Positions 1-42,468 of a stretch of DNA of 64,000 nucleotides are shown here, one piece after another. The notes under the pieces were generated by a model. It saw only the letters and a program-made list of their open reading frames with translations, was not told the DNA's origin and did not search any database. Source of the stretch: Escherichia phage Pollock; the sequence record NC_027381.1; one strand, written 5' to 3'. Positions within the stretch are counted from its first letter, which is position 1; each line of letters opens with the position of its first letter. A program made the position numbers and the translations under genes.

Positions 1-60
1 AATGCACACAATCATTCTGTAAGCAAAGTACTCCCCCCCCCCCATACTTCACACATTGAT

Positions 61-85
61 GAGTCTTCGACTCTAGTGGAGCAAT
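61..85 (+). promoter_or_regulatory. Hairpin promoter-like motif copy 1 (candidate virion-RNAP early promoter)
   Basis: Inverted repeat gagtc-TTC-gactc (5-bp stem, 3-nt loop) followed by tagtggagcaat; same architecture recurs at 1501, 1551 and 3828; lies about 45 nt upstream of ORF 119..454. N4 vRNAP promoters are small DNA hairpins with 3-nt loops. Confidence 0.5.
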
Positions 86-118
86 GGTGCTCTACTTAAT
101 CATGATTAGGAGTATGTT

Positions 119-454
119 ATGAAACCTGTTAACTCTATCGGTATCTTTGGTGCTGTATCTTCCTCTACTGTATCTGCATTGAATGCAATTGAACGTGGTG
201 CAGTAGCTGTAGCTAATACTGCTAACATGGCAGTAGCTCTTACTGAATGGGGTAATGAGGAGATTGAGAACCTTCGTCATCATCGTGCTATGAAGCGTGA
301 AGTAGAAGGTGAAATCTTCCGAACCAAGTATGTAATGGAAGCAGCTAAAGAAGTAGCTGAAGTACATGCAGAAGCCAATAAAGCTATGGAGAGTGCATCT
401 CCCGAAGTTAAAGCAGTATTTGATGCATTAGTAGCTAAGCATCTCAACAAGTAA
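119..454 (+). CDS. Early hypothetical protein, Ala-rich, 111 aa
   Basis: ORF directly downstream of hairpin motif copy 1; followed by hairpin plus T-run terminator at 463..487; no recognisable domain. Confidence 0.5.
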   Translation: MKPVNSIGIFGAVSSSTVSALNAIERGAVAVANTANMAVALTEWGNEEIENLRHHRAMKREVEGEIFRTKYVMEAAKEVAEVHAEANKAMESASPEVKAVFDALVAKHLNK

Positions 455-462
455 TTACTAAG

Positions 463-487
463 CCTACTCTTCGGAGTAGGTTTAAAA
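463..487 (+). terminator. Rho-independent terminator
   Basis: cctactc-ttcg-gagtagg stem-loop followed by TTT, immediately after the stop of ORF 119..454. Confidence 0.6.
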
Positions 488-696
488 ATTCTAATTCACA
501 CATTACACATCAGATAGATAGTATGTACATAAACACATGTGTATCCATACATATCGCTATAACGCTCTAGGAAGCTCTACAATGAGATTAAGGGTAGAGG
601 TAATAGGGTAACTCATGTTGATTTAATTCAATTGATTCTAGCTATGCTAGAAGACTTATACATTACTTACTTCTTAAGCTTCTCACTTCGTGAGTA

Positions 697-1035
697 ATGG
701 GTAGAAGTAAAAGGAGTATTTCAATGGCTATCATCAAATCAATCATAGGTTCTAATACAGAACCAGAAACACTTGTAGTAAACAAATACAAAGAGCCATA
801 CGATGTATACATCGGTAGAGGTTCAATATGGGGGAATCCCTTTACAATTCAAGAATATGGTAGAGGCAGATGTATAGCCATGTATGAGCAATACATACGT
901 CAAAGACTACATCAAGAACCAGACCTATACCTTCAATTACTTGAGCTTAAAGGTAAGCGATTAGGATGCTTCTGCAAACCTAAAGCATGTCATGGAGACA
1001 TACTTATTAAGCTTATCCAAGAGTACTCAAACTAA
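697..1035 (+). CDS. DUF4326-like protein
   Basis: Motifs YDVYIGRGSIWGNPF and C-terminal GCFCKPKACHGD resemble the DUF4326 family signature. Confidence 0.5.
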   Translation: MGRSKRSISMAIIKSIIGSNTEPETLVVNKYKEPYDVYIGRGSIWGNPFTIQEYGRGRCIAMYEQYIRQRLHQEPDLYLQLLELKGKRLGCFCKPKACHGDILIKLIQEYSN

Positions 1036-1500
1036 TATCCTAATTTTCCTTATTTTCAATAAATATACTATAGAACACCTAAAGACTATCTAGATATTTA
1101 AAAGGGTTATTTATGGTTACTCAAATCACAGTAGCTGAATGCGTTCGATTGGAATGGGAAAGTCATTATTACTTACCATTTATTGAACGTTACAAACTAA
1201 TCTCATTAATCAAAAGAATACTGGAGAACTAAATGGAATGGTGGAAAGCAGAACTAATCCAGTCAGTAATTGGAGCAATTATTGGTTTAGTTGTTGTCTA
1301 TGCAATGGTTAAGTTTGGAGGAGATGAAGATGCGTAAATCATTAATCATGGGTACTAAAGCTGATGTTATTAAGATGAAAGCTAAACGTCAGATGTATAA
1401 AACAGTGACTTTTGCAGAACGTTATAGTACATCTGAACCAGTGAATCGTATTGTTACTTTCAATCATCCAATCCTTAAAACTATGTAACCCTTTTCATCA

Positions 1501-1525
1501 CCGTCTTCGACGGTGGTGGAGTAAT
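1501..1525 (+). promoter_or_regulatory. Hairpin promoter-like motif copy 2
   Basis: ccgtc-TTC-gacgg followed by tggtggagtaat. Confidence 0.5.
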
Positions 1526-1550
1526 CCTCAAGATTCTCCTTCGTTTGTAA

Positions 1551-1577
1551 GAGCGACTTCGTCGCTGGTGGAATAAT
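1551..1577 (+). promoter_or_regulatory. Hairpin promoter-like motif copy 3
   Basis: agcgac-TTC-gtcgct followed by ggtggaataat; about 40 nt upstream of ORF 1607..2020. Confidence 0.5.
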
Positions 1578-1606
1578 CCAATTAATTAACTATCGAGGTA
1601 TATATC

Positions 1607-2020
1607 ATGGCTATTCTGAATGGAAATAACGCTTCTTCTATCATCGGTGCTGCTCTGAATGGTAAAGCTACAAACAATACTCAACGTCCTCAAGCTGAAA
1701 TCTTTCTGAATGTAGGTATTACTGTTCAGTTACCTAACGAAGAAGGAGAAATGGTTGATACTTTCCTGTCTCTGCCATTTGGTTTACCACTGGATACTAT
1801 GAATGAATTAGTAATTCGCGGTAGTAACGCTCAATGGAATGGGCAAGCTGCTGCTCGTAATGAGTTACTGAAGGCTTTGATGAAAATGGGTGAATCTCTG
1901 GAAGCTGGTAGTGGTACAGAGTTACCTAAACTTCAGGTTCAATTATATCGTCGTAAAGCACAGGAAGAACATATTGCAAGCAACAATGCAATGTCTCAAA
2001 TCCTTGCTGCATTAAGCTAA
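1607..2020 (+). CDS. Early hypothetical protein, 137 aa
   Basis: ORF downstream of tandem hairpin motifs; codon choice (CTG, CGT, GGT) differs from neighbouring AT-rich ORFs, suggesting high expression; terminator follows. Confidence 0.5.
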   Translation: MAILNGNNASSIIGAALNGKATNNTQRPQAEIFLNVGITVQLPNEEGEMVDTFLSLPFGLPLDTMNELVIRGSNAQWNGQAAARNELLKALMKMGESLEAGSGTELPKLQVQLYRRKAQEEHIASNNAMSQILAALS

Positions 2021-2028
2021 TACTAATC

Positions 2029-2053
2029 GGGGAGCCTTCGGGTTCCCCTTTTA
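2029..2053 (+). terminator. Rho-independent terminator
   Basis: ggggagcc-ttcg-ggttcccc stem-loop followed by TTTT. Confidence 0.7.
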
Positions 2054-2055
2054 AA

Positions 2056-2250
2056 TTGGAGGTAGGTATGAAGATATTAGCAGTGTTTCTATTGTTCTTA
2101 TTACTGCTTAGTAATGTATTACTGGAAGTACTTGATAAGGATACAGTGCAATATCAACAACAAATGGAATGCATTAAGAAGAAAATATCTCATGGCATTC
2201 CACGTAGTTCAATCCAGTTAACAGACAGTTCTTGTAAGGTGATTAAATGA
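2056..2250 (+). CDS. Small membrane or secreted protein, 64 aa
   Basis: N-terminal hydrophobic stretch ILAVFLLFLLLLSNVLL. Confidence 0.35.
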   Translation: MEVGMKILAVFLLFLLLLSNVLLEVLDKDTVQYQQQMECIKKKISHGIPRSSIQLTDSSCKVIK

Positions 2251-2426
2251 GTATCTTTATTGTAGTTTTATTTTTCTTTCTTCTTCTCCCTTCTTTTAGA
2301 AGATTAGTATTTAAAGCACTTCGTGCTCTTCTCAGAGTATTTGGATTTGTTTTATTTATTCCAGTAATTATATGTACTGTTATTTATGCATCAATAAAAG
2401 AAGCAAATCATAAAAGAAGATATTAA
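2247..2426 (+). CDS. Small hydrophobic protein, 59 aa (hand-called, below ORF-track cutoff)
   Basis: ATG overlapping the upstream stop (ATGA); product largely hydrophobic (IFIVVLFFFLLLP, FGFVLFIPVIICTVIY). Confidence 0.3.
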   Translation: MSIFIVVLFFFLLLPSFRRLVFKALRALLRVFGFVLFIPVIICTVIYASIKEANHKRRY

Positions 2427-2476
2427 ATAACAGCTCCCAATTAAGGGAGCTTATTAAACTATTAAAGAGATAGTCG

Positions 2477-2722
2477 ATGAATAAAGAATTAATATTTATT
2501 CTTAGTTGCATACGTGAATCAATGTGTGATTACACAGAAGATGAATATGAAAATGATACATCTCAATATACGAAAACAGATGACTTATGTCTTGAAGTAA
2601 TGCTCCATAAATGTTCTTCCTTTCCTAAAGAAGAAAAAAATTGTAATGCTTGCCTATTAACTTATAAAAATAATATTGGGTATTCATCTCAAATAACAAT
2701 AGTTATTCAAAAATTAATCTAA
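2477..2722 (+). CDS. Small Cys-rich protein, paralog family member (MNKELIxIL N-terminus)
   Basis: N-terminus MNKELIFILSCI shared with ORFs at 3044, 3214, 3387, 3599, 4381, 5732 and 5923; several Cys in C-x(n)-C ... C-x2-C spacing. Confidence 0.45.
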   Translation: MNKELIFILSCIRESMCDYTEDEYENDTSQYTKTDDLCLEVMLHKCSSFPKEEKNCNACLLTYKNNIGYSSQITIVIQKLI

Positions 2723-2795
2723 AGATTATCAATATTGGTAGTCCAATATTAATGTCTCTTTAGATAGTTACTCGTTAATCCAAAAGGATATCAAT

Positions 2796-3035
2796 ATGTC
2801 AAAGAAACCTAAATCACTTAAACTGCAAGAAGTTAAATTAGGAGATGTTCCTGATTATTTAGTTACTTATAGTCGTGTAGACCGTATCTGGGGAGTACAT
2901 ATTAATGGTACTTCTGTATATATTCTTAAACGATTAGTAGGTAAAAAGTACATGTATTATGTAGGTAGTCGTTATTTTAAGACACTACGTAATGCAATAT
3001 TTAGTGTTGTATTAGGAAATTCACTTCCTTTCTAG
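2796..3035 (+). CDS. Hypothetical protein, 79 aa
   Basis: ORF with AAGGA upstream; no recognisable domain. Confidence 0.35.
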   Translation: MSKKPKSLKLQEVKLGDVPDYLVTYSRVDRIWGVHINGTSVYILKRLVGKKYMYYVGSRYFKTLRNAIFSVVLGNSLPF

Positions 3036-3043
3036 GAGAAGTA

Positions 3044-3217
3044 TTGAACCAAGAATTAATACTTATTCTCTCATCTATAAGTAAATCAAAACTTTGGTGT
3101 AATTGTTATCCTATAGCATGTACTGGAGTACATTGTTTTCATTGCGTTTTGTATGAGGATATCCAACCTAGTATGTATATTGCTAAAATTTTAAAAATAG
3201 GTGAGAGAATACTATGA
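3044..3217 (+). CDS. Small Cys-rich protein, paralog family member (TTG start, hand-called)
   Basis: Translation LNQELILILSSISKSKLWCNCYPIACTGVHCFHCVLYED; AGGAG about 7 nt upstream of the TTG; stop overlaps the next paralog start. Confidence 0.4.
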   Translation: MNQELILILSSISKSKLWCNCYPIACTGVHCFHCVLYEDIQPSMYIAKILKIGERIL

Positions 3218-3390
3218 ATAAAGAATTGATAGCTATTCTTAATTATATAGAATCATGTCCAAATTTGTGTATTCACCTAACTCCACATATTGCTTGTAAT
3301 AATATTTCATGTACTTGTTGTCCTATGTTTAGAGTAATTAGAAGAACTTACTTTAAAGACATAGCAAAAGTAGTAGAAAGAATAGTATGA
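3214..3390 (+). CDS. Small Cys-rich protein, paralog family member (hand-called, 58 aa)
   Basis: Translation MNKELIAILNYIESCPNLCIHLTPHIACNNISCTCCPMF...; ATGA overlaps with both neighbours. Confidence 0.45.
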   Translation: MNKELIAILNYIESCPNLCIHLTPHIACNNISCTCCPMFRVIRRTYFKDIAKVVERIV

Positions 3391-3602
3391 ATCAGGAATT
3401 AATACTTATTCTTAAATCTCTGTGTAATATAGAAGATTACTCAATAAGAGGAATTCTATGTACAGTCATAATAGCAAAACCAAATGAAATAGGATGTGAA
3501 CACATATCATGTAGTAATTGTTATTTTGTTAGAACAGGGCCTGTAAAACACGAATATAAATTAAAAATTAGAGAAACAATTGAGAACTTTAAAACAATAT
3601 GA
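3387..3602 (+). CDS. Small Cys-rich protein, paralog family member
   Basis: MNQELILILKSL N-terminus; CEHISCSNCYF Cys cluster; 4-nt overlap with the next paralog. Confidence 0.5.
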   Translation: MNQELILILKSLCNIEDYSIRGILCTVIIAKPNEIGCEHISCSNCYFVRTGPVKHEYKLKIRETIENFKTI

Positions 3603-3805
3603 ATAAGGAATTATTATTAATAATTCAATCACTAGTTAATTTAATTTATCTTTATCATAAGAATATGCTTTGTAAAGAAATAAGAGGAAAAGCTCCGAAA
3701 TTACACTGTATCGGTGTAGAGTGCGCTAATTGCTATTATTCTTTGTCTTCTCCTGTAGAAAAAAGATATGGCTTAAAGATAGAAACCACCATTAAACAAT
3801 TCTAA
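3599..3805 (+). CDS. Small Cys-rich protein, paralog family member
   Basis: MNKELLLIIQSL N-terminus; CIGVECANCYY Cys cluster. Confidence 0.5.
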   Translation: MNKELLLIIQSLVNLIYLYHKNMLCKEIRGKAPKLHCIGVECANCYYSLSSPVEKRYGLKIETTIKQF

Positions 3806-3827
3806 TTCTCTTTGTCGCTTCGCTCCT

Positions 3828-3852
3828 CTGCCTTCGGCAGTTCTGGGGTAAT
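3828..3852 (+). promoter_or_regulatory. Hairpin promoter-like motif copy 4
   Basis: ctgcc-TTC-ggcag followed by ttctggggtaat; about 30 nt upstream of macro-domain ORF 3870. Confidence 0.45.
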
Positions 3853-3869: not shown

Positions 3870-4373
3870 ATGTTAGAAGCTCGCGGTAATATGCTTGAGA
3901 TGGATTGTGATGCTCTATGCATTACTACTAATGGATTTGTTAAAAGCAATGGTGCATCAGTTATGGGTGCAGGTATTGCTAAACAAGTTCGAATAGCTAT
4001 TCCGGGAATTGATAAGATTTTAGGACAGAAAATTGCTCGTGAAGGCAATAACGTTCATCCAATCATTAACCATAATAATATCTGGATAGTATCCTTTCCT
4101 GTTAAACCAATAACTGAAATCAGTAATGGGAGTAACTTCGTAAAACATAAATATTTCCCTGAAGGGACAACAGTTCCGGGATGGGCATGTAAAGCGAATA
4201 TCAACTTGATAGTACGTTCCTGTCATCAGTTAGTAAAACTAGCTAATCAGTATGGTTGGCAGAAAGTATTACTACCTAGACCGGGATGTGGTGCTGGAGA
4301 ACTTAACTGGAATTATGTGAAAAAGGTTATCGAACCTTTATTAGATGACAGATTTATTGTCTGTACTTATTAA
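3870..4373 (+). CDS. Macro-domain-like protein (putative ADP-ribose binding or hydrolysing)
   Basis: N-terminal DALCITTNGFVKSNGASVMGAGIAKQ resembles the macro-domain DA-x-V-N-A-A-N ... G-G-G-V motif region; C-terminal LLPRPGCGAGEL resembles the second glycine-rich loop. Confidence 0.5.
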   Translation: MLEARGNMLEMDCDALCITTNGFVKSNGASVMGAGIAKQVRIAIPGIDKILGQKIAREGNNVHPIINHNNIWIVSFPVKPITEISNGSNFVKHKYFPEGTTVPGWACKANINLIVRSCHQLVKLANQYGWQKVLLPRPGCGAGELNWNYVKKVIEPLLDDRFIVCTY

Positions 4374-4380
4374 AATATTT

Positions 4381-4587
4381 ATGAAAGATGAATTAATCAT
4401 CATTTTAAATGAAATATGGTCATTACCAGAATACCAAAATATACGTGGTCCTAAGGAAGAATTATGTAGAAGAATAACATGTACCGGAGTTCACTGTACA
4501 AATTGTCCTCTTGGTTATTTCTTAAAAGACGAAGATTACGTCTCTCAAATCCATAAAATATTGGAAGTCATTAATCATGAAATATGA
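4381..4587 (+). CDS. Small Cys-rich protein, paralog family member
   Basis: MKDELIIILNEI N-terminus; CTGVHCTNCPLGYF Cys cluster (same CTGVHC as ORF 3044). ORF track begins at 4345; ATG 4381 after the macro-domain stop is the likelier start. Confidence 0.5.
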   Translation: MKDELIIILNEIWSLPEYQNIRGPKEELCRRITCTGVHCTNCPLGYFLKDEDYVSQIHKILEVINHEI

Positions 4588-5500
4588 AACTCAACTCCTG
4601 ATTGAATCTATGTTCAACCGTCATCAAGAACGTGAACTCATTAGAAATGAATTAAGAAGTTCACCTGAAATTATGGAGTTAGTTAATGCTGCTGTTAGTA
4701 AAGCATTGGAATGGGTTAAAGGAGATTACTTTGAAAGTAAGAATAAACGTTTAGCTTTATTAGATACCAATATTTTAGAAGATTTTTATATTGATGTTGC
4801 TGGTTCATTGGCTCAGTTTGGTAAAGCTAAGTATACCCAAGTAGTAGGTATGGTGTCTGGGATGATAACTACTATGTCTCAGAAAGAGGCTATACGTACT
4901 GCTGGCGAGTTAATTTCATTAGCAGCTATGGTAGACCTAGTTGATGTGATTCCTGCGTCTATGAGCATTACAGGCTCTATGGAATTGGTTTCTCGTATTC
5001 AACTTGAACCAAAAACATTAGAACTGATTGACCAGTATCAGTATCTTCCTCCAATGATTGTTCCACCTGAACCAGTTAAATCAAATACTGGTAGTGGATA
5101 CCTGTCTATTAAATGGGATTCGTTAATTCTTAAAAAGAATCATCATGAACATGATATCTGTTTAGATAATATCAATAGATTCAATTCTGTAGCATTTTGT
5201 CTGAATGAACGAGTTATCCGTAATATTCGAGATAATCGTAAACATCTGGATAGTGCTAAAGCAGATGAGACTGCTGATGAGTTTAAAGCACGAGTAGAGT
5301 CATTCCTAAAAATGGAAAAAGAATCTATGAAAGTATTTGCAATGCTCATCAATGAAGGAAATAGATTTTATCTAACTCATAAATATGACAAACGAGGACG
5401 TACTTACTGTCAAGGTTACCATGTCTCCTACCAAGGTAATACGTATCGTAAAGCTATTCTTGAATTAGCTGATAAAGAAATAGTACCTATTGAGGAATAA
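4577..5500 (+). CDS. Phage RNA polymerase II subunit 1 (N-terminal portion of a T7-like RNAP; N4 RNAP II small-subunit analog)
   Basis: C-terminal DKRGRTYCQGYHVSYQGNTYRKAILELADKE aligns with T7 RNAP DWRGRVYAVSMFNPQGNDMTKGLLTLAKGK; upstream of the catalytic subunit ORF as in N4-like phages. Confidence 0.7.
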   Translation: MKYETQLLIESMFNRHQERELIRNELRSSPEIMELVNAAVSKALEWVKGDYFESKNKRLALLDTNILEDFYIDVAGSLAQFGKAKYTQVVGMVSGMITTMSQKEAIRTAGELISLAAMVDLVDVIPASMSITGSMELVSRIQLEPKTLELIDQYQYLPPMIVPPEPVKSNTGSGYLSIKWDSLILKKNHHEHDICLDNINRFNSVAFCLNERVIRNIRDNRKHLDSAKADETADEFKARVESFLKMEKESMKVFAMLINEGNRFYLTHKYDKRGRTYCQGYHVSYQGNTYRKAILELADKEIVPIEE

Positions 5501-6135: not shown

Positions 6136-7370
6136 GACTCAATATGCAACAGTTTACAGCTTTCCAATATATCAAATTAGATATTGCTAACTCTTTTGGT
6201 TTAGATAAAGAACTGTTTGATGACCGTATCAAATGGTTTGAAGAAAACAAAAATAATTTAGCTAATTTGGTAAATGATGCAGATGAACCTGCTCAATTCT
6301 ACGCAGGTATGTTGGCATACCAAGATGTACTGGAAGGTAAACCAATTGGTTATTTAGTAGGTATGGATGCTACTGCATCTGGATTGCAGTGTATGGCTGC
6401 ATTAACTGGCTGTAAGACTACCGCTGAAACAGTAAATCTTATTGACCCTAATTGTCGTAAAGATGCTTATACCGATGGCTATAAAGTCATGGGAGAACTA
6501 CTTAATGGCAAGATTGATAAGATTGACCGTAAGGATTTGAAGGGAGCTATTATGACTCACTTCTATGGTTCTCAAGCAAATCCTAGAAGTGTATTTGGTG
6601 AAAATACTATAGAACTACAAAAGTTCTATGAAACTGTTCAAACCATTGCTCCCGGTGCAAATATGCTACGAGATGATTTAATCAATCTCTGGCAACCAAA
6701 AGCACTTCAACATTTATGGGAATTACCAGATGGCTTTACTGCTGTCGTTAAAGTAATGACCATGAAAGAAGAAAGCTTTGAAGTAAATGAATTAAATAGT
6801 TCCTTTACTCATCGTTATTGGGTTAATGAGGGTCAGGATTTTGGTTTATCACTTGCTGCTAATGTTGTTCACTCTGTAGATGGGATGGTAGTACGTGAGA
6901 TGAATCGTCGTGCTAACTACGATGAAACCAAAATACAGCGTGTATATGAGCTTCTGACTGGTTCAAACAATACAGGTATTGTGGACTATACAGTAGATGA
7001 TAAACAGCTTAAGAGAGCTATTGAGCTTGCTGAAAGACATCGTTTTGTTTCTACTGTGATGATTGAGTTCATTAACCATGAGAATGTACATATGATTCCT
7101 TTATGGATTAAGAACCAACTCATCGAAATTATTGAGAAGATGTTGGCTCATAAACCATATGCATTAATTGCAATTCATGATTGCTTTAAATGCCATCCTC
7201 TGTATATGAATAACGTGCGTCAGAACTACATTGATATCTTTGCTCAGATTGCAGATAGCACAATGCTTCAAGCAATTGCATCTCAAATCTCTGGTAAACG
7301 TATTCCAGTAACTAAACTGTCTAATGACCTTTCAACATACATTCGTAAATCCAACTACATGCTTAGTTAA
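6132..7370 (+). CDS. Phage RNA polymerase II catalytic subunit (T7-like single-subunit RNAP palm and fingers)
   Basis: Motif A-like GMDATASGLQC (T7 DGSCSGIQH), motif B-like RKDLKGAIMTHFYGS (T7 KRSVMTLAYGS), NVVHSVDGMVVRE (T7 NFVHSQDGSHLRK), motif C-like IAIHDCF (T7 LIHDSF). Confidence 0.85.
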   Translation: MRLNMQQFTAFQYIKLDIANSFGLDKELFDDRIKWFEENKNNLANLVNDADEPAQFYAGMLAYQDVLEGKPIGYLVGMDATASGLQCMAALTGCKTTAETVNLIDPNCRKDAYTDGYKVMGELLNGKIDKIDRKDLKGAIMTHFYGSQANPRSVFGENTIELQKFYETVQTIAPGANMLRDDLINLWQPKALQHLWELPDGFTAVVKVMTMKEESFEVNELNSSFTHRYWVNEGQDFGLSLAANVVHSVDGMVVREMNRRANYDETKIQRVYELLTGSNNTGIVDYTVDDKQLKRAIELAERHRFVSTVMIEFINHENVHMIPLWIKNQLIEIIEKMLAHKPYALIAIHDCFKCHPLYMNNVRQNYIDIFAQIADSTMLQAIASQISGKRIPVTKLSNDLSTYIRKSNYMLS

Positions 7371-31828: not shown

Positions 31829-31855
31829 AAGCCTCTTCCATGAGGCTTTTTCTTT
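31829..31855. terminator. Bidirectional terminator between convergent transcription units
   Basis: aagcctc-ttccatg-aggctt stem-loop flanked by an A-run upstream and a T-run downstream; sits between the plus-strand block and the minus-strand vRNAP gene. Confidence 0.7.
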
Positions 31856-34800
31856 TAGTACAGACTTACTAAAGGATGGATAGTAAATCCATTTAGTGCT
31901 GTACCCATTCCAACGTTATAACTTAAGCTACCTGTTGCTAAGTTTGCTTCCATGATATTAGGTAATCCAGATTCAGCAGTATTACCAAACATAAGGAATA
32001 ATGCTCTTAATGGGTTTTCCCTAATCGTTCTTAAGATAATTTTCTGAATACGAATCTTATAGTTTAAGAACCATGTTAAACCAATAGCATCCAAATAGAA
32101 TCTGGTGCGACTAGGTAATATGTCATAGTTCACAAACTCATCCATTACTCTATTCAATGCACTATCTTTATCCATTGGATTACGAGAACGAGTAGTTAAA
32201 TGCTTATATAGAGAGTATTTAGCAACGAAGTCACCATACTGAATTGAACGATTCAATAAGAAGTACACATTACTATCTCTAGATAAAGTGATTTCTTTAG
32301 CAACACGTTTAACACTATCTGGAATACCAGAAGTGTACTCATCCATTTTAGTAAGTAGTTTATCCTTCAAAGAGTAATCATCCTGCTGACCTAAATCTTC
32401 TGCGATAGTTGGTAACAAACCAGCTTTAATTAAATCAGCTACTGGGTTACGAGCTTGAGAATCTTTAAGTTCAGATATTTTTCTCTGATACTCTTCAGCC
32501 ATTCTTGGATTATGGTTTACAGCCAGATAATGAGAATACTCGTTAATTAATTTCTCATTTCTTCTGTACTCCTCAGCAGCCAGTACAGCAGTAGACATAT
32601 CTTTAGCCATAGTAATTGGGCTAATACCTACCGTAGCCAAATGTACCATGTTAGATAAGATATTCCCTGCGGATACAACTACTGAACGAACTACAATCCA
32701 GTCCTTCATTTCCTTCACAAATTCCATCAAACCACGTTCACCAAGTCTTAGATAGCGTGCAGCATTCTTACCTAAGAATGTTTCTGCAATGTTTACAAAT
32801 GCTTTCTGAAACTCTTTAGAGAAATTGGTTTGACCAGTCCATAGATTCAGTACAGAAGGTTCACGATAACCAAATGCATTATTCAGTAAATCCTTACGTA
32901 CTTTAATTTTCCCATTAGGCCAAATACGTTTGGCTGCTTCTTTCATCTCAATAGGCATCAGTTCATAGATTTCTTTTAACTGATGGTCTGTAGAGTTTTC
33001 ATCTATAGTGATGTATTGATATGCTTTTCCTTCTCTAGCATCCTTCTTATAGATTTCACCAAGTCTTTCTAAAAGCATCTCATTGTATTTGGCAGCCTGA
33101 ATCTCTTCAGCAATACGACCTTCCCAAGCAGCTAATACTTTAGTGAAGTCATTATCTACATTTAATTGAGCTTCTCTATTAGCTCTTGGCATTTGGTACG
33201 AGTATCCCATTATTGAACCAGCGCGGTTTAAAACAGGCTGCATCTGTCCATCATAGTTCTGAGGCATTGGTTTAGAAGCATCAAATAAATCATTGATAGC
33301 AGCTTGTTTATTAGCTGATACCTTGTTCTTTTCTGATGTCTTCCATGCACCCGGGGTCATAGAACCATTAACACTTCTGCCTGTAATTGGGTTTACTCCA
33401 CCTACGGTGCTTTGCAGGGTACTCATTACACCAGCAATCCAACGAGGTTCACCACCATTGTTAGAATGGTAGTAGTACATTGGAGTTTTATCTGTATCTG
33501 CTGGGTCACGTTTAACTTGAGCACCTCTGGTATAGCCTCTACGAGATAAGCTTGGTTCATCCTTAATGGATGCAATAATTACTTTTTTGTTTGGGTCAGT
33601 GATAGTAGGAGTAAATCCTTTAACTGCTGCCAAAGAATAGTTATTACCAGATTTAGCTAACTCAGCGCCTTTAAGGCTTTCATAGTATTTGAGAGTAAAA
33701 GTCATACCATTATTATCTGGTTCACCTTTAGTCATCTCTCTACTGATTACATTACTTACTGTTTCTTTATCTGCTTGAGATAATTCAGTAAGAGCACTCA
33801 ATGAAGCCAAGGTATCAATTAACTGAGTAGCTATTTCAACAGCATCATTTGATGGTCTTTCTCTACCAGTACCAATCAAACGTGCAATAGCAGCAGCATT
33901 TGATAATTGGTATGCCAGTGGAGATACTCCATGCACCATCTGTTTAGCTAAACCATGAGCAGATTTAATATAGAATGCAGAGTTTTGAGCACCTGCTTTT
34001 TGTAACTGAGATTCTATTAAATCTATCTCTTTAGCTAACTCATTTGGATTAGTTAATAATTCATTTAAACGAACCAAGTCATACCCATTAGCAAACAGGT
34101 ATGCCATATCTGTATTGGCAACTACTCTCTGAATAGCCTCTTTCTCATTTTGGTTTAAAGAAACAAACGTTTTTTCAATCATACCCGGAACCATCTCACG
34201 AATAATCTGACGTGCTCTATCAGCAGCCATATTTTTCTGAGTTAATAAGGTATGAATACTACTGTTGGTTTCATTAGAACCAATAAATTCATTAATGAGT
34301 TCAGCGATAGTACCTAGTTTTCCATCCTGATGAATGGTCATATAAATGTGAGTTATAGCCTCACGTACATCATGAGCATCTTGTTCATTAAATACTGCTG
34401 CTCCAACAGTAATACCAAATGCTACAGACTTAGGTACTTTCTTCTCTACTTTGCTTAACTGCTTACGAATAGAGTTACCAAAAGCTCTCAACCTATCTTG
34501 AGTAGCTTCAGTGATTTCTTCTGTACCTCTACCAATTCTGGTAAAGAGATTATCTCTTGCCTGACTATCTACATGACTAATGTTCTTAGCCAGTTTAGAT
34601 AAACGAGAAGCAATATTTGTATCTCTTAAAGATTTAGTAGCTAAGCCAGATAACCAAGTAAGAATCATATTAGTTAAATCACCAATACGTTCTCTAAGAG
34701 ATGTAGCCTGATTCTGTCTGGTACGTTTAACACTAATTTGAGACAGCTTATTTCTTAATTGTTCATTGGTTTCAGCCAATGCAATAAAGTTAGCAAGTCT

Positions 34801-37800
34801 GTTAGTACGACCAGTAGCATCAGTAGTAATAGCTGTATTGCCAAATACTGCATCATATCTTTGTTTAGCTAATGCCATTTCATTAGCAGAACGATTGTTA
34901 GGGTCAGTTAAGAAATCTTCTACTTTTAAGTTTTCTCTGGCTTGCGAGTACAAACTACGTGCAACCAGAACACTTGGAGAAAAGTTCTCTAACCCATATT
35001 TCATAGATACTTGCAGCATCTTGAATACAAATGCTTCTTTCTCACTCATGTTAAAACCATGAGCAATTAATGCATTTGGTGAGTCATCAATTTCTGGGTC
35101 AATGCTATCTACCAAAAGTTTATCTTGGTAATGCTCTAAACCAGATATTTGCTGACCAGTATTTTTAATTACTTTAATGATATTGGATTGTAAGTAATCC
35201 AGAGTATCTGTTAGATGATTTACATGTTCCTGAGATGCTTTACCTGCATCCAATTTATTAAATAATGTTTCTGCATCTAATCTATTAATGTTGTTAGCAT
35301 TTTGCTGAGCATAGCTTGTTGTATCTCTGGATTTAACAGGATTGGTAGCATCAGCCAAAGCAACGGTATGGCCTAACAAACGAGTCCAGTAAGAAGTAAT
35401 GTCTGGATTAGAGCCAATAGCAAACAGACGTTTAATAGATTCAGCTAATTGCTTAAGTACCTTTGTTACAGTTCCTGTAATAGTTTTTTTAGTCATTGCA
35501 TCAATCATCCTTGGGTTAACAAGACCCCATGCAATGAATTCAGCAGTAGCCTGAGCCATATCACCAGAAGCAATATGATTATTAATCAAGTCTACAACAC
35601 TATCTGTTTCAGGATTCGTACTAGAATACTCATTAACAAATTTAGTCATGAGTGCTTCTATTGAAGCAATCTCTACTTTTTGAGCAGGAGTTAATGCTTC
35701 TGGATTACTGTAATAATTGTGAACAGCATTAGCAGTAGCAGCATGAATTAACTCATGCATTACAGTCTCAATAGACTGAGAACCAATATAGATATTCTGT
35801 CCCTGTGTAAGCCCTAAGAATGAGTTATTAAACTCAACCTTAGTATCAGGTGTCATTTCCTGTTGAACGGCTGAGAGAGCTTCTGGAGAGCCTACATACA
35901 CATTAATATCTTCAGGAATAGAGTTAGCAATCTTATCTAATACGAAGCTAGTAATTCTATTTTGACGAGAAGGTAAAGATTTAGCTGCTTCTTTAATAGC
36001 AGCAATCACATCACCTTTAGACAGTACTTTAATTCCATCATGTCCTGATACATTTCTTCCATTTTTAGCCAATGCTTCAATCATTTGACGAGTAGGAGGA
36101 ATAGTTACTCTACCTTTAGGGAGAGATACTGATTCCATAGTAGGAAGTTCTGTATTAGCAATTAACTGTTCTAAAGGAGTTCTGGTATCAATTGCTTCTT
36201 TATCAGTCTGCTTACCATTCTGAACATTGAATGGAATATTAGCCCCGGTCATTTGGTTAATAGAAGTAACTGCTTCTCCTCCTAATAAACCTTGTTTAAT
36301 AGCAGTTTGAGTAGCAGCTTCTTTTTTAAGAAGTGTAGTAAATGCTTCTAACACTTCTGGGCTAGTAGGTGAATTGGTTTCATCTGCTCCAATCATTTCC
36401 ATAATTCCACGGAAAGATTGTTCCAAACGTGTATCTGCATCTGGACCTAATTCTTCAGTTAGATTTACTCCTTCCATCGCTTGCTCAAAACGATTAGTAA
36501 AATCTTGAAGTAAATCAAATTCATTCCAACTTTGCAGAACACCTTGGTTAATAGCTTGAGAACCAGTATCTAAATGAGCTACAGCATTAATATAACCATC
36601 AAATACGTTAAGGGCATTGTTAGGGTTAATATCACGAGCAATAGCCTGCATAGCTGCTTCTACAGATTGAACCAATAAAGGCATTACACGAGTACCTGGT
36701 TCAGTATAAGTAGGAGTATCTACACCAAAAGTAGCACGACGCATTTTACCATCCAGATTTCTACGTCCTCTGGATTCCATACGATAAATATCAAATGTGA
36801 CTCTACCTTCTTCACTCAGAAGAATACCTTCATTTAATTTAGCTGCATCAGTATTACCAGCAGTAAACCAAGAGTTAAAGATAGGCATCTGAGTAATCAG
36901 TTCTCTCTTAATCTCGTTATATTGCTGCTGAGAAAGAGATTCATACTTAGATAATTTACCTGCTTCTCTAAGTTCTTTTTCTTTAGCTTCTACTACTTTA
37001 TTCCAACGAGACATGAATACTTCATGCATTACAGCAGCAGCATAAACCATCATCTTGCCGCGATTGATTACAGTACCAAATTCATTAGCAATTGATTCAT
37101 TTACTGCTGCACCAATACCAATTTTGATGTTTTGGGTAATTGCTTCAATCTGCTCGCTAGTAAACTCAAATTTAGTTACATCTTTTCCTAAATTGATAGG
37201 AGCACCAATTTTTACCCAAGAACCATTACGAAATACTTGAGCAGTAGTTAATTCATTAGTTGTATTGGTCAAATCATTAATATGAGCAATTGCAGCATCT
37301 CTATCTTCCTGATTAGTAGCTGAATCTACTGCTCTTAATGCTTCTGTGATTGCTTCGTAATAACCATTAGCAATACCCATAGCAATCTTTCTATTGATTG
37401 CATTAGCACCACCAGAATAAACAGTAACTGTTACTGGATTTTTAAGTAATCCTCGACCTATTTGGATTGGATGTTCTACATCCTCTCCTTCAACAATATT
37501 TACATCACCAATTAGTTTTGATGCAGCAAGAGTTACCCTTACCTGATTTTTCAAGCGTTCAATATCTCTCATCTCTTTTTGTTGGAATTGTCGAGATTTA
37601 TTTTTAAGGGCAGCTAACCTGTTAGGGATATTACTGTAAGCATCCATCATGTTGTTGATGTATTGCTGTGAGCCAGCAGCAGCAGTTTTATACAGGTCTA
37701 AGAATCCCGGTTCTTCAGCAGCATCATTGTATAGACGGTCTGATTGCCCATAGAACAAACCACCTTTCTCTAACTTATTCAGTAAATCTTGGTTCACGTC

Positions 37801-40800
37801 TTTTAAACCAAGCTGAACAATAGAGTTAAATGGTCCATTAGTTACACCATCAAGCTCCAGCATCACATGAGTCTGGAATGAGGATTTACCTTGTTCTACT
37901 GCTAATTCATATTGAGCTTGTGCATATAAAGCATGGAGTGTTTTAGTTTTCTCCTTACCTGCTTTTACAGCTTCTAAAAGAACCTCTGCATCAGCATCAC
38001 TAATTGAATCTTGGTTTTCAGCAGCTTTTAGAATATTGATAGCATCTCTAAATAAACCAGTACTGATAGCTTTATTTAGCTTATCTCTGGCAGTCTCAGA
38101 AGAGAGTTTATCAACAGCAATATCCAATCCTTGAGCAATAGCATAATCAAGAAATGCACCATGTTGAGGATTGTTGAGTTCAATAGTAGAAGGTTCAACA
38201 GTAATTAATTCACGATGTAATTTAGCTGACTGAGGGTTTAAATCCCCTGAGTTAAGCATCATACGGAAGTTACTAATTACGTTATATGCAAAATAAATAG
38301 GTGTATTAGCCAGAGGTAATCCAGCTTCTGACATACGAGTTAAACCGTTAATCAGAGTATTAATATCTCTTTCAATAGTACGGTTAGAACCTTGAATGGA
38401 TTTCAGATGAGCACCATTAGCATTCTCTTCTGATTGAATGCCTAACATTCTACCAATCCATTCTGTACCTAATTTATCCAGCATAAGGTCATGAAGACCC
38501 ATGTTGATATAATGAGGTTGTTTACTGGCTTTGTTACGTGCAGCAAGCATCTTTTCAGGAATATCCTGACCACCACCATTTTTAACTTTAGTGCTCTGAC
38601 CTTTTGGTGGAGTACCAAAGTATGCTCCTGCTTTTTCTCTCTGAGGATTAGTTAATTGACCTAAGAGGTCATTGGAATCCTTCATTAAGTCTACTAAACG
38701 TTTAGCAGCTTCAGATTCTTCATTCATACGAATGAATATACGAGAGTTTTTAATGTTGGATTCATTTACTTTAGTAGAACCAACAGCAGCTAATTCACTG
38801 TTTTTAACAACAGATTCTTGAACCAGATTAGCATTAATCATTACGTTCAATACTTCAGTTGCTAGTGCTTTAGATACAGCATCACGAACAGAGATAGGAG
38901 TATTAGGGTCAGCATTAATACCTAAGATTCCAAAAATCTCTCTGCTTAAATAATCAATAACATTTTGCCGGTCTGTACCTACATTACGTAATAAATCTGT
39001 TTGCTCTACAGTAGGTTTAGTTTTGTTATCTAAACCAAGAATATCCATTACTGTACGGTCATCATTGAATGTAGTTTCAACTGCATTACGTACAAACCAC
39101 TGCATCATACCAGCAGTCATTGCTTCAATTACTGGCTGAGGTAAGAAGTAAACATTTTCACCATTGATATTTCTTACTTCACTAAAATATTCGACAGGGT
39201 ATGTTTCCCAGAAGATACGTTGACCTTCAGGAGTTAATTTACCCCAAGATTGAATTAACGATTGTTCAATAGCAGGGACTAAACCAGCAAATTGACGTAG
39301 TACTTTTACTTCTTTCTCTGTTACTTGTTCTGGTTTAATAAATCCTTTAAACAGATTTTGAATCTGAGTAATAGGATTAGAACCATTGGTAAAAATGTTA
39401 TTAAGTCTTCCAGAGAAATTAGAAGTTCTCAGGAATGCAGAACGTTTACCTGTAGGTTTAAACCATTTTTTAACTTGGTTAGTAGCCTGATAGTTCTTAT
39501 CTGCTTCTGAAGTAGATTTAGCATCAGAACGTACAGTTTCTGATTGCAGACTACTCAGAATATCGAAATTAACACCTTTATCTAAACCAAGTTCTAATTG
39601 AGACTCATCCATTAAATCAGTCTCAACTTCAGTTGGTTTTTCCTGAATCTGAATTTCAGATTCAACTACATCTGGTTTCTCAAATAGTTCTCCTTGAACT
39701 GGAGTACTAGTAGGAGCTTCTGTAACAGCTTCTGGCTGTGTTTCTACAGTCTCAGAAGGTGTTTGTACCTGTTCTTCAGAAACCTGTGCAGAAGCCTCTA
39801 TAGGAGCTTCTGATTCTTGAGTTGAGACTAATTCCTCTGTAGCAACTGGAGCAGATTGTGCTGGCACAGATACAGGTTTACCATCTACTAATTGACTAGT
39901 AATGGTATGTGCTTGACGAACAGCATTAGCATCATTACGAATTTCTTTGATTAATCCTTTAGAACGTACCGGATGATACGTCATAGGATTTCCATCTAAA
40001 GATAAATATGGTTGTCCTGTAGTTGGATTAATTACTTCTACAGGTTGATTACCAGTAAAGTTTTGAGCAGCCTGTTCAAATGCATTAGCTTTAGTTTCCA
40101 TGTGCTCTGCAAAACGGTTTAAATGGTCTAATAAACCTTGAGCACGAGCAGTATCCCCTAAAGATAATGCACGGAAGATACCTTGCTGATACTGTTGAAT
40201 ACCAATAAATCCATCAGAACCTTTACGTACATCTTCTCCTACTTGGCTCATTGCTTTACCAGTAGCAGAGATAATTTTTAATTTATCTACATCCTGCTGG
40301 TTCAAACCAATGGTTTCTGCTGAATTAACTAAACGGTCAGCAACTTCTGGAGTAATAGAAGATGCATCTAAATTCATTTGAGCCAGAACAGATTTAATGT
40401 TCTTTTGTACTTCAGGAGATTTATAAGTTTCTGGAGTAATTTCAGAAGGTAAAGACTCCATAATCTTATTCATTTCTTCTGGAGTCAGTCTGAAGCTTTC
40501 AGCAGTAGTTTTAACTGCTTGTACATCAGGATGGTTCAGCACAGCATTGATATTATCAATAGCTGTTTGATACTGAGCTTTCTCTTCTTCTGGTGCAACT
40601 TCCATCTGTGCTTGAATTTGAGGTAAAGCTTCCTCATAAGCAGAGATAACATTATTACCTACAACAGCTAAATCTCTACGAGAAGCTTCATCCAAATTAC
40701 GTTCTTTAATTGCACGGGAAATTCTCAAAATAGAATCTGGAGAACTAATTTCCTCTTCAGGAATAGCTTTAAATACTTCTTTAGCAGCAGGTTCAGTAAC

Positions 40801-42468
40801 AGCATCAACAGCTTTAACTACAGTTGGTTCTGCTACTGCTTCAGCATCTGTTTGTTGTACTGTTTGTTTAACTGATTCATTAGCAGCAGATACAGTATTC
40901 CTAAAAGATTGTGCTCTGGATTCTGCTTTACGGGCTTCTCTTGCTTCAAATGCTTCACGACCTTGTTGAGCACCTTCTTGAATTGCTCTAGGTGTTTCAC
41001 TGATAGCCGAGCCAAAAGCACCCATACCCGCACCAGCAATAGCAGACTCAACAGCGTTTGAACCAATGTCTTCAGCAAGGGACTGAGATTCATCAGCAGA
41101 AGTCCGTATGCCGAGGTTAGAAGCAAATTGACCAGTAATCCCTTGGGAGGTTTCTTCAATAGTTTCTTTGAAAGCATTGTTAAGAACTCGTGAGGAAGCA
41201 CTAAAGAATCCCGTACCTTCAAGTAAGGAAGGAGTGAATATACGAGATTCAAATGGAGCAGCAACCTTACCAGTCAGAGCACCAAGAGTACCTGCTACCA
41301 AAGCAGTGACATTACCTGTTTGAGTACGTACTTGTCTTCTGGCTTGCTCTGGAGACATACCATCAGCAATTAAATCACGATACATAGGTGATTTTTCTGC
41401 TAATTGCTTATCAGTCATTCCATCAATCTGGTCTAATGTTTGTTGGGCATTAGAACCTGCTTCTTGGAAACCTACATAACCAACCAATGCTCTTTCAGCA
41501 GCATCCTGAAGACGTTTTCTACCATACTGAGTTGAAGCTAGCTTGGTAGCAAAATCTGCACCATATTCTTCAGCTAATTGTTTAAATGCTCCACGAGAAG
41601 CAATCTTACCTACTAAACCACCAGTTAATATATCTGGAGCAGATTCAGCAATAAGTGTAGTTAATGCTCCCGGAGCACCACCATATTGTTCAGCAGTATT
41701 AACAAACTGACGTAATTGTTCTTTAGCCCCTGCAACTAAAGGATTATCACCTTTAGCTATATCAGCAGCTTCACGAGCTTCAGCACCTTGTTTAAATCTC
41801 TCTTTTTCTGCTTCAATTACAGATTGTTCATATTGAACACGCGGAGAATATTGAGAACGTTGTTCTTCAACATACTGTTTTAATGGTACATCAATACCCA
41901 CTTGTTCTAATAAAGTAGGTTGTCCTAATTGTTCTTCTTGACCAGTAACATTAGCAATTAAATCTTGAGTATTTTGTAATGCTAAGTTACCCAAACCAGT
42001 AACAAATCTAGCTGTATTACCTGCCCATATCTGTGCAGCATTACCTACATCAGATAATTCTATAGGAGCATTTTCAAATATATCTGTATTGGCTTGAGCA
42101 ATATTTAAAGACAGTTTGTCTCTAGCTGCCTGAGGACCATATTTCTGCTGTAATGCAGATAAAGGCATATCTCTTAAATCAGCCAAATATTGCTCAGAAG
42201 GATTAGTTTGAGTAGCAGTAGTAGTAGTTCTTTGTCCAGATAGCATCTGATTCATCTGTTCTCTTGTATATTTAGGACCAGATTCTGCTAACTGGATTGC
42301 TTGCTGTGCTCTTTGATACTGTGGAGAACCTACAGCAAAGTCTATTTCTACCCCGGGTACTGGAGTACCTAACTCTAATTTCTTCTGTTGAGTAGCTATA
42401 TTTAATTGTTGTGTTTTTTGTAAGGCAGCATTAGCTAATTCTTGCTGTTTCTCAAATCCGGTGGCCAT
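31855..42468 (-). CDS. Virion-encapsidated RNA polymerase (vRNAP; N4 gp50-like), 3537 aa
   Basis: Single 10.6-kb ORF; a protein of about 3500 aa adjacent to the virion-protein block is the hallmark of N4-like podophages; synteny with the downstream late genes matches N4. Confidence 0.85.
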   Translation of the reverse strand: MATGFEKQQELANAALQKTQQLNIATQQKKLELGTPVPGVEIDFAVGSPQYQRAQQAIQLAESGPKYTREQMNQMLSGQRTTTTATQTNPSEQYLADLRDMPLSALQQKYGPQAARDKLSLNIAQANTDIFENAPIELSDVGNAAQIWAGNTARFVTGLGNLALQNTQDLIANVTGQEEQLGQPTLLEQVGIDVPLKQYVEEQRSQYSPRVQYEQSVIEAEKERFKQGAEAREAADIAKGDNPLVAGAKEQLRQFVNTAEQYGGAPGALTTLIAESAPDILTGGLVGKIASRGAFKQLAEEYGADFATKLASTQYGRKRLQDAAERALVGYVGFQEAGSNAQQTLDQIDGMTDKQLAEKSPMYRDLIADGMSPEQARRQVRTQTGNVTALVAGTLGALTGKVAAPFESRIFTPSLLEGTGFFSASSRVLNNAFKETIEETSQGITGQFASNLGIRTSADESQSLAEDIGSNAVESAIAGAGMGAFGSAISETPRAIQEGAQQGREAFEAREARKAESRAQSFRNTVSAANESVKQTVQQTDAEAVAEPTVVKAVDAVTEPAAKEVFKAIPEEEISSPDSILRISRAIKERNLDEASRRDLAVVGNNVISAYEEALPQIQAQMEVAPEEEKAQYQTAIDNINAVLNHPDVQAVKTTAESFRLTPEEMNKIMESLPSEITPETYKSPEVQKNIKSVLAQMNLDASSITPEVADRLVNSAETIGLNQQDVDKLKIISATGKAMSQVGEDVRKGSDGFIGIQQYQQGIFRALSLGDTARAQGLLDHLNRFAEHMETKANAFEQAAQNFTGNQPVEVINPTTGQPYLSLDGNPMTYHPVRSKGLIKEIRNDANAVRQAHTITSQLVDGKPVSVPAQSAPVATEELVSTQESEAPIEASAQVSEEQVQTPSETVETQPEAVTEAPTSTPVQGELFEKPDVVESEIQIQEKPTEVETDLMDESQLELGLDKGVNFDILSSLQSETVRSDAKSTSEADKNYQATNQVKKWFKPTGKRSAFLRTSNFSGRLNNIFTNGSNPITQIQNLFKGFIKPEQVTEKEVKVLRQFAGLVPAIEQSLIQSWGKLTPEGQRIFWETYPVEYFSEVRNINGENVYFLPQPVIEAMTAGMMQWFVRNAVETTFNDDRTVMDILGLDNKTKPTVEQTDLLRNVGTDRQNVIDYLSREIFGILGINADPNTPISVRDAVSKALATEVLNVMINANLVQESVVKNSELAAVGSTKVNESNIKNSRIFIRMNEESEAAKRLVDLMKDSNDLLGQLTNPQREKAGAYFGTPPKGQSTKVKNGGGQDIPEKMLAARNKASKQPHYINMGLHDLMLDKLGTEWIGRMLGIQSEENANGAHLKSIQGSNRTIERDINTLINGLTRMSEAGLPLANTPIYFAYNVISNFRMMLNSGDLNPQSAKLHRELITVEPSTIELNNPQHGAFLDYAIAQGLDIAVDKLSSETARDKLNKAISTGLFRDAINILKAAENQDSISDADAEVLLEAVKAGKEKTKTLHALYAQAQYELAVEQGKSSFQTHVMLELDGVTNGPFNSIVQLGLKDVNQDLLNKLEKGGLFYGQSDRLYNDAAEEPGFLDLYKTAAAGSQQYINNMMDAYSNIPNRLAALKNKSRQFQQKEMRDIERLKNQVRVTLAASKLIGDVNIVEGEDVEHPIQIGRGLLKNPVTVTVYSGGANAINRKIAMGIANGYYEAITEALRAVDSATNQEDRDAAIAHINDLTNTTNELTTAQVFRNGSWVKIGAPINLGKDVTKFEFTSEQIEAITQNIKIGIGAAVNESIANEFGTVINRGKMMVYAAAVMHEVFMSRWNKVVEAKEKELREAGKLSKYESLSQQQYNEIKRELITQMPIFNSWFTAGNTDAAKLNEGILLSEEGRVTFDIYRMESRGRRNLDGKMRRATFGVDTPTYTEPGTRVMPLLVQSVEAAMQAIARDINPNNALNVFDGYINAVAHLDTGSQAINQGVLQSWNEFDLLQDFTNRFEQAMEGVNLTEELGPDADTRLEQSFRGIMEMIGADETNSPTSPEVLEAFTTLLKKEAATQTAIKQGLLGGEAVTSINQMTGANIPFNVQNGKQTDKEAIDTRTPLEQLIANTELPTMESVSLPKGRVTIPPTRQMIEALAKNGRNVSGHDGIKVLSKGDVIAAIKEAAKSLPSRQNRITSFVLDKIANSIPEDINVYVGSPEALSAVQQEMTPDTKVEFNNSFLGLTQGQNIYIGSQSIETVMHELIHAATANAVHNYYSNPEALTPAQKVEIASIEALMTKFVNEYSSTNPETDSVVDLINNHIASGDMAQATAEFIAWGLVNPRMIDAMTKKTITGTVTKVLKQLAESIKRLFAIGSNPDITSYWTRLLGHTVALADATNPVKSRDTTSYAQQNANNINRLDAETLFNKLDAGKASQEHVNHLTDTLDYLQSNIIKVIKNTGQQISGLEHYQDKLLVDSIDPEIDDSPNALIAHGFNMSEKEAFVFKMLQVSMKYGLENFSPSVLVARSLYSQARENLKVEDFLTDPNNRSANEMALAKQRYDAVFGNTAITTDATGRTNRLANFIALAETNEQLRNKLSQISVKRTRQNQATSLRERIGDLTNMILTWLSGLATKSLRDTNIASRLSKLAKNISHVDSQARDNLFTRIGRGTEEITEATQDRLRAFGNSIRKQLSKVEKKVPKSVAFGITVGAAVFNEQDAHDVREAITHIYMTIHQDGKLGTIAELINEFIGSNETNSSIHTLLTQKNMAADRARQIIREMVPGMIEKTFVSLNQNEKEAIQRVVANTDMAYLFANGYDLVRLNELLTNPNELAKEIDLIESQLQKAGAQNSAFYIKSAHGLAKQMVHGVSPLAYQLSNAAAIARLIGTGRERPSNDAVEIATQLIDTLASLSALTELSQADKETVSNVISREMTKGEPDNNGMTFTLKYYESLKGAELAKSGNNYSLAAVKGFTPTITDPNKKVIIASIKDEPSLSRRGYTRGAQVKRDPADTDKTPMYYYHSNNGGEPRWIAGVMSTLQSTVGGVNPITGRSVNGSMTPGAWKTSEKNKVSANKQAAINDLFDASKPMPQNYDGQMQPVLNRAGSIMGYSYQMPRANREAQLNVDNDFTKVLAAWEGRIAEEIQAAKYNEMLLERLGEIYKKDAREGKAYQYITIDENSTDHQLKEIYELMPIEMKEAAKRIWPNGKIKVRKDLLNNAFGYREPSVLNLWTGQTNFSKEFQKAFVNIAETFLGKNAARYLRLGERGLMEFVKEMKDWIVVRSVVVSAGNILSNMVHLATVGISPITMAKDMSTAVLAAEEYRRNEKLINEYSHYLAVNHNPRMAEEYQRKISELKDSQARNPVADLIKAGLLPTIAEDLGQQDDYSLKDKLLTKMDEYTSGIPDSVKRVAKEITLSRDSNVYFLLNRSIQYGDFVAKYSLYKHLTTRSRNPMDKDSALNRVMDEFVNYDILPSRTRFYLDAIGLTWFLNYKIRIQKIILRTIRENPLRALFLMFGNTAESGLPNIMEANLATGSLSYNVGMGTALNGFTIHPLVSLY

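Follow-up and report, generated by a model that had tools for sequence, protein, structure and literature searches.

Probable N4 gp1/gp2-type early module at the left end of the Escherichia phage Pollock genome

The left-terminal early block

A stretch of 64,000 nucleotides from Escherichia phage Pollock (sequence record NC_027381.1), referred to here as the window, was analysed for the identity of two short genes near its left end, open reading frames (ORFs) 119..454 and 1607..2020. Both were present exactly at these coordinates, as listed in a first-pass annotation of the sequence, which had regarded them as early proteins belonging to no known family and as candidates for host takeover. A megablast search with bases 1-4000 retrieved N4-like podophages (Schitoviridae) of Salmonella and Klebsiella, with identities of 77-84%. 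The genome paper of Pollock had already described synteny with N4, a virion RNA polymerase (vRNAP), the RNA polymerase RNAPII, an SSB (a protein that binds single-stranded DNA) and a 610-bp terminal repeat (PMC4319500). In our reading, to which we assign a probability of roughly 0.8, the region constitutes the early block at the left terminus of this N4-like phage, the end injected first, and carries the N4 gp1/gp2 module of RNAPII cofactors. The two genes and the predicted terminators that follow them are:

119..454, + strand: gp1-like coding sequence, 111 aa, 12.0 kDa, pI 6.1, phrog_5020, inside the first 610 bp (the published terminal-repeat length)
459..484, + strand: terminator after gp1, CCTACTC-TTCG-GAGTAGG then TTT, -16.2 kcal/mol, z -4.96
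1607..2020, + strand: gp2-like coding sequence, 137 aa, 14.7 kDa, pI 5.1, by homology an orthologue of the single-stranded DNA (ssDNA)-binding RNAPII cofactor
2029..2052, + strand: terminator after gp2, stem GGGGAGCC, loop TTCG, stem GGTTCCCC, then TTTT, -18.9 kcal/mol, z -3.2

ORF 1607..2020 and N4 gp2

The product of ORF 1607 aligned with N4 gp2 in BLASTP (37% identity, E 7e-20), and both proteins matched phrog_4099, with E-values of 4.6e-41 for Pollock and 2.8e-50 for N4. An alignment of 21 gp2 sequences, drawn from Enquatrovirinae, Humphriesvirinae, Rothmandenesvirinae, Erskinevirinae, Riverridervirus, Pokkenvirus and one unclassified phage, displayed the invariant motifs P-x-A...N-x-G...S-L-P-x-G-x-P-L-D-T...N-x-L...Q-L. 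In the AlphaFold2 (AF2) model residues 1-27 are disordered, and the core consists of a beta-hairpin followed by a 23-residue helix; a fold search of BFVD with this model gave N4 Gp2 as the best match, the best matches being otherwise only N4-like gp2 proteins. A sequence search of the PDB yielded only a sub-threshold chance match (6ur7, E 0.57), the Pfam-A scan assigned no family to ORF 1607, and an NCBIfam scan of the ORFs returned nothing meaningful. The protein is 100% identical to Pollock AIX12365.1, which bears the name 'single-strand DNA-binding protein' in GenBank. These comparisons make ORF 1607 a clear orthologue of N4 gp2. The first-pass annotation had named clear homology to a known housekeeping protein as an observation that would refute its proposal; clear homology to a known protein was indeed found, the protein being a phage transcription factor and not a housekeeping one.

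In N4, gp2 (p17; UniProt P15235) is needed for middle transcription: its ssDNA binding is not sequence-specific, and it brings in RNAPII by a contact that withstands salt; mutants in ORF2 have a specific defect in middle transcription, the purified protein binds both ssDNA and RNAPII, and RNAPII and gp2 are membrane-associated (PMC4496689). The Pollock protein shares with it the PHROG, an acidic pI (5.1 vs 5.2 in N4) and the genetic setting, namely that of an early gene with a vRNAP hairpin promoter upstream (here at 1499-1572), a terminator with a UUCG loop and a heterodimeric RNAPII encoded in the same genome. The arrangements differ in that N4 gp2 has one hairpin promoter and Pollock gp2 two in tandem, and in that N4 gp2 directly follows gp1, whereas in Pollock the DUF4326 gene and three small ORFs lie between them. 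The partner polymerases, that is, the heterodimeric RNAPII and the vRNAP, are encoded within the window:

4577..5500, + strand: RNAPII small subunit, N4 gp15 homologue and predicted gp2 partner, phrog_2166 E 8e-116, 37% identity to N4 gp15 (E 1e-50)
6144..7370, + strand: RNAPII large subunit, N4 gp16 homologue, phrog_2051 E 1e-167
31855..42468, - strand: vRNAP, 3536 aa, expected reader of the hairpin promoters, phrog_2206, 3214 bits

Two further observations concern the gp2 family. A precomputed Pfam tag, PF26984.1, was attached to all of the gp2 homologues, and a recent Pfam family for N4 gp2-like proteins probably exists. The gp2 genes of N4 and of the G7C-like phages encode an N-terminal extension (MHPILYEILTFCLGLLTD...; 586-684 in the N4 record and 1189-1287 in the G7C-like record), which differs between the two by synonymous and conservative substitutions and starts some 10 nt downstream of the predicted +1, where a Shine-Dalgarno sequence is absent. 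This extension might explain the membrane association reported for N4 gp2.

ORF 119..454 and the gp1 family

Two Pollock accessions, AIX12360.1 and AIX12444.1 (gp01, CPT_Pollock85), carry the same sequence as ORF 119. One sequence under two accessions fits a copy of gp1 at each genome end, of which the right one falls beyond the window, and the gene is probably duplicated, since it lies within the published length of the terminal repeat. Both ORF 119 (E 8.6e-33) and N4 gp1 (E 1.3e-46) matched phrog_5020, and both matches cover positions 1-105 of 106. An exhaustive profile search with the Pollock-type gp1 retrieved five proteins, including a 108-aa intermediate, P0076 (E 9.8e-12), which also matched the N4-type gp1 profile built from seven genera (E 2.5e-4). 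When P0076 was added to the hhalign comparison of the Pollock-type and N4-type profiles, the two aligned over 84 collinear columns with 81% probability (E 1.2e-5). A 947-aa protein, P0075, was discarded as a gp1 relative, as it has seven matching stretches, looks highly repetitive and was judged a spurious compositional match.

All of the left-end records that were examined (N4, Pylas, Axy12 and others) have gp1 as the first gene, behind promoter P1 and followed by a terminator; it falls within or overlaps the terminal repeat and encodes about 108-113 aa (120 aa as annotated in Meara). The N4 and Pollock genes are alike in each of these respects, both being in or largely in the repeat and encoding about 110 aa, and they differ in sequence, with only ~17% identity. 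Both gp1 and gp2 were present in 11/11 relatives examined. As the PHROG assignment, the profile comparison, the position and the co-occurrence agree, ORF 119 was accepted as a gp1-family protein, and the sequence evidence is consistent with a remote homologue. The first-pass view that neither ORF has a known family was therefore abandoned for both genes.

The AF2 model of gp1 comprises one helix spanning residues 7-91 and a short second helix, which suggests an oligomeric coiled coil. Foldseek gave no PDB matches for this model, a lone long helix being uninformative in such a search; the PDB sequence search with ORF 119 found none either, and its Pfam-A scan gave a sub-threshold chance match only.

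Hairpin promoters and terminators

The promoter motif sought on both strands of the window consisted of a TTC loop on a perfect stem of 5 bp or more and of a TGG with its first G placed 11 nt beyond the loop centre. Five sites were detected, with centres at 67, 688, 1507, 1559 and 3834, all of them on the + strand and in the first 3.9 kb, and the motif was absent from both strands of the remainder of the 64 kb; dinucleotide shuffles of the same 64 kb contained a mean of 0.05 sites. The predicted promoters are:

61..80, + strand: hairpin promoter 1 (N4 P1 equivalent), GAGTC-TTC-GACTC then TAGTGGA, predicted +1 G78
682..701, + strand: extra hairpin promoter before the DUF4326 gene, CTCAC-TTC-GTGAG then TAATGGG, predicted +1 G699
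1499..1520, + strand: distal tandem hairpin promoter before gp2, CACCGTC-TTC-GACGGTG then GTGGA, predicted +1 G1518
1552..1572, + strand: proximal tandem hairpin promoter before gp2, AGCGAC-TTC-GTCGCT then GGTGGA, predicted +1 G1570
3828..3847, + strand: fifth hairpin promoter, before the phosphatase-like ORF 3870..4373, CTGCC-TTC-GGCAG then TTCTGGG, predicted +1 G3845

All five sites have the features of N4-type promoters, with a TTC loop on the coding strand, a C...G closing pair and a G at position +11 from the loop centre, and their template strand folds into hairpins with a GAA loop. The likeness to N4 P1-P3 extends to a stem of 5-7 bp, a 3-nt loop, the G-A-A template loop with its C:G closing pair, a purine at template -11, G at -10 and C at +1, with +1 placed 11 nt from the loop centre, and in both phages the promoters form a left-end cluster in a single orientation. 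The site at 61..80 has the geometry of N4 P1 (N4 record 90-109; GTTGC-TTC-GCAAC..TGGA), and N4 P2 (AAGAAGC-TCC-GCTTCTT..TGGA) as well as the promoters of Pylas and a G7C-like phage share the Pollock geometry. The promoters number five in Pollock, two of them in tandem before gp2, and three in N4. The proximal tandem promoter was invariant in 5/5 relatives, and the distal one showed compensatory stem changes in phage TR2. A sigma-70 scan returned fewer sites than in shuffled sequences, giving no sign of host RNA polymerase promoters in the region.

The hairpin centred at 67 has ORF 119 as its first downstream gene, and the tandem pair centred at 1507 and 1559 has ORF 1607, just as had been annotated at the outset. 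The hairpins numbered 1 and 2/3 in that scheme are real, but the numbering passed over the hairpin at 682-694 in front of the DUF4326 gene, and there are five sites, not three. This extra promoter (682-701) overlaps the 697 ATG of the listed DUF4326 ORF (697-1035, Pfam DUF4326). The true start of that gene is probably ATG 724, to judge from its sequence context: it is preceded by an AAGGAG Shine-Dalgarno sequence and yields 103 aa, the same length as the Pylas_002 homologue. Bases 3828-3847, the fifth promoter, were flagged by a generic terminator scan as well, and the ORF behind it, 3870..4373, is phosphatase-like (phrog_335).

Terminators with UUCG loops were found after both ORFs. As RNA, the gp2 terminator reads GGGGAGCC-UUCG-GGUUCCCC-UUUU; its stems covary in Pylas, As2, TR2, MY01 and N4, with the position and the UUCG loop kept. 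The gp1 terminator shows a compensatory change in MY01, and N4 has an analogous hairpin with a CUCG loop. A search of bases 1-2500 against Rfam gave no RNA family. The terminators bear out the description of the two genes as compact, terminator-ended units; the term monocistronic applies less strictly to gp2, as no terminator was detected between the 688 promoter and gp2, and read-through would place gp2 on a polycistronic transcript too.

Codon usage

The frequency of optimal codons (Fop) was calculated per gene using a set of E. coli optimal codons. ORF 119 had an Fop of 0.70 (rank 3/69 genes) and ORF 1607 an Fop of 0.60 (rank 7/69), the genome median being 0.46; the major capsid protein and the replicative SSB were among their few peers on this scale. 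Among the Leu codons of ORF 1607, CTG accounted for 8/18, against 12% genome-wide (binomial p = 6e-4) and 4/79 in the neighbouring small ORFs. The first-pass annotation had singled out ORF 1607 for its CTG, CGT and GGT codons. CTG is indeed enriched in this gene relative to the whole genome, but CGT (46%) and GGT (61%) are common genome-wide and set it apart only from its immediate neighbours. Nor is ORF 1607 the only one of the pair with such a pattern, ORF 119 being at least as codon-optimised, so that both genes, and not one, look optimised for expression. Their GC content at third codon positions (GC3) is not raised (0.25-0.26), hence the bias is codon-specific and not GC-driven. Strong Shine-Dalgarno sites, short leaders and host-optimal codons together indicate that gp1 and gp2 are probably made fast and in bulk.

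Similar codon bias was observed elsewhere in the window. The most extreme optimisation was that of a 479-aa gene at 15967-17409 (phrog_10440, with weak ATPase-like matches), in which CTG makes up 33/44, CGT 24/26 and GGT 25/28 of the respective codons, and which has a strong hairpin upstream at 15872-15888. A TerB/TciA-like gene at 10079-10528 and ORF 31011-31433 are likewise codon-biased.

Proposed mechanism and comparison with LUZ7

N4 gp1 and gp2 are established early genes (PMC4496689; PMC12633501). A first-wave, early role is read for their Pollock counterparts on that account, and because the genome end where the two genes are found, each downstream of N4-type vRNAP hairpin promoters, is the one injected first by N4. 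In the mechanism that we propose, vRNAP would start after injection at the five hairpin promoters, extruded from the DNA by supercoiling. A first unit, bounded by the promoter at 61-80 and the terminator at 459-484, would yield the gp1-type protein, and the tandem promoters at 1499-1572 would drive the gp2-type protein, with transcription stopping at 2029-2052, so that the two products would be made first and abundantly. The gp2-type protein would then coat ssDNA at melted, AT-rich middle promoters and recruit the heterodimeric T7-like RNAPII via direct protein contact. The gp1-type protein, predicted to be elongated, all-helical and probably oligomeric, may act as a second cofactor in the same middle-promoter step. 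Homology, synteny, the anatomy and conservation of promoters and terminators, codon bias and the partner polymerases were observed in Pollock itself; from N4 genetics and biochemistry we infer the ssDNA binding, the RNAPII recruitment, the early timing and the role of gp1.

Pseudomonas phage LUZ7 offers a parallel. There, two tandem early promoters drive Drc, and gp01, a first gene analogous in position to gp1, accounts together with Drc for 90% of the early transcripts (PMC9163698). Drc (gp14), the highest-expressed gene, has the role of an early ssDNA-binding RNAPII cofactor, as gp2 does, and the large share of gp01 and Drc parallels the gp1/gp2 pair, the tandem promoters and the codon optimisation of Pollock, which supports the expression argument made for Pollock. 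By this analogy, the tandem hairpins and optimised codons of Pollock resemble the solution of LUZ7, arrived at with a different protein. Drc was rejected as a gp2 homologue, having no sequence similarity to it, and ORF 1607 does not fall in the Drc family. Unlike gp2, Drc has a basic pI (9.2), binds supercoiled DNA and is believed to work without a gp1-like factor (PMC7145618). LUZ7 gp01 and gp02 were likewise rejected as hidden gp1 homologues (hhalign against the gp1 profile, E 0.13 and 0.69), and no homologue of gp1 or gp2 was found in LUZ7.

A bolder proposal, which we consider rather unlikely, is that gp1 is the long-sought 'protein X', which would open AT-rich middle promoters through a mechanism both new and non-canonical, or that it has some entirely different function in the first minute. 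If it were true, the over-expression from tandem promoters of non-homologous SSB cofactors (gp2, LUZ7 Drc) would amount to a convergent design rule of the Schitoviridae.

Alternative explanations

Several points weigh against the gp1/gp2 reading of the locus. BLASTP of ORF 119 against N4 gp1 was not significant (E 0.18), and the first hhalign of the Pollock-type and N4-type profiles, made without the intermediate, gave only 23% probability (E 8.6e-4). The N4 review lists gp1 with gp2 as an RNAPII cofactor on 'preliminary evidence' only (PMC4496689). The AF2 models are of only moderate confidence, with a pLDDT of 73 for gp1 and a mean pLDDT of 67 for gp2 (about 80 in its core). The N-terminal extension of N4 and G7C-like gp2, which is hydrophobic and 33 aa long, is missing from gp2 of the Pollock clade. 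Among the promoters, template position -8, a G contacted by vRNAP residue R904 in N4, is not conserved in Pollock, where the five sites have T, A, T, A and C (coding strand A, T, A, T and G, not C); Pylas promoters vary at -8 in the same manner. The two weak comparisons of ORF 119 with N4 gp1 would also suit a mere positional analogue of N4 gp1 with another job, for instance as a membrane or DNA-entry scaffold for the first-injected end. Helices that are long and of low complexity can give inflated alignments, RNAPII and gp2 of N4 associate with the membrane, and small residues (A, S, T, G, V) abound in the N-terminal half of gp1. We hold this explanation to be improbable, given that P0076 links the two types and raises the profile match over collinear columns, that the clustering by the PHROG authors unites them, and that size, position and promoter-gene-terminator layout are identical.

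The idea that the main task of one of the proteins, or of both, is to knock out a host process, say by tying up host ssDNA or a host protein, and not to serve phage transcription, has a very small chance of being right. This was the emphasis of the first-pass annotation, whose notion of early, strongly expressed genes gained inferential support while host takeover itself went unsupported. The idea draws on gp1 and gp2 being the earliest and probably the most abundant products, on their functional analogue Drc being toxic when expressed in the own host of LUZ7 and annotated 'toxin', on the biochemical activity of gp1 being unpublished and on the absence of any known match to either fold. It sits poorly with the clear orthology of gp2, with the specific middle-transcription defect of N4 ORF2 mutants and the binding of N4 gp2 to ssDNA and RNAPII, and with the co-occurrence of gp1 and gp2 with a heterodimeric RNAPII; neither protein matched any PADLOC model. 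Finally, the codon pattern could have arisen from the amino-acid or GC composition of the genes, or from their being foreign, and not from selection for expression, in keeping with the GC content of both genes (0.40-0.41, against 0.25-0.33 in their neighbours). This we regard as highly improbable, as GC3 is not raised, the bias is shared by a few genes of the window, the major capsid protein and the replicative SSB among them, and both genes belong to the lineage's conserved core and are no recent imports. An early gp1/gp2 cofactor module of the N4 type is thus the reading retained.

Annotation and other features of the early region

The gp1/gp2 early module of Pollock is an already known, ordinary feature of its phage family and not a new host-takeover protein. 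Novelty is low because the module is known from N4, the genome is published and one of the genes is annotated there already, and the finding is a correction and an annotation more than a discovery. The gain for the Pollock record consists in renaming gp01 as 'N4 gp1-like', in adding five vRNAP promoters and two terminators, and in the probable start of the DUF4326 gene at 724. For a family in which neither protein has a solved structure or mechanism, this conserved, highly expressed pair could suit structural work.

Five small early ORFs (2477-2722, 3044-3217, 3214-3390, 3387-3602 and 3599-3805) are paralogous; four of them abut in tandem, and the remaining one lies about 320 bp upstream. All begin with MNKEL or MNQEL and have conserved Cys residues, including a CxxC motif, from which they may be a family of zinc-binding early proteins. 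Between the gp1 terminator and the next promoter, about 200 nt (482-681) are non-coding, with no convincing ORF or Rfam match, and this stretch includes position 610, at which a terminal repeat of the published length would stop. Near the left terminus, a run of 11 C occupies 34-44, some 20 nt upstream of the first hairpin promoter; a comparable run stands at 33-41 in N4, and the run may be a conserved terminal feature.

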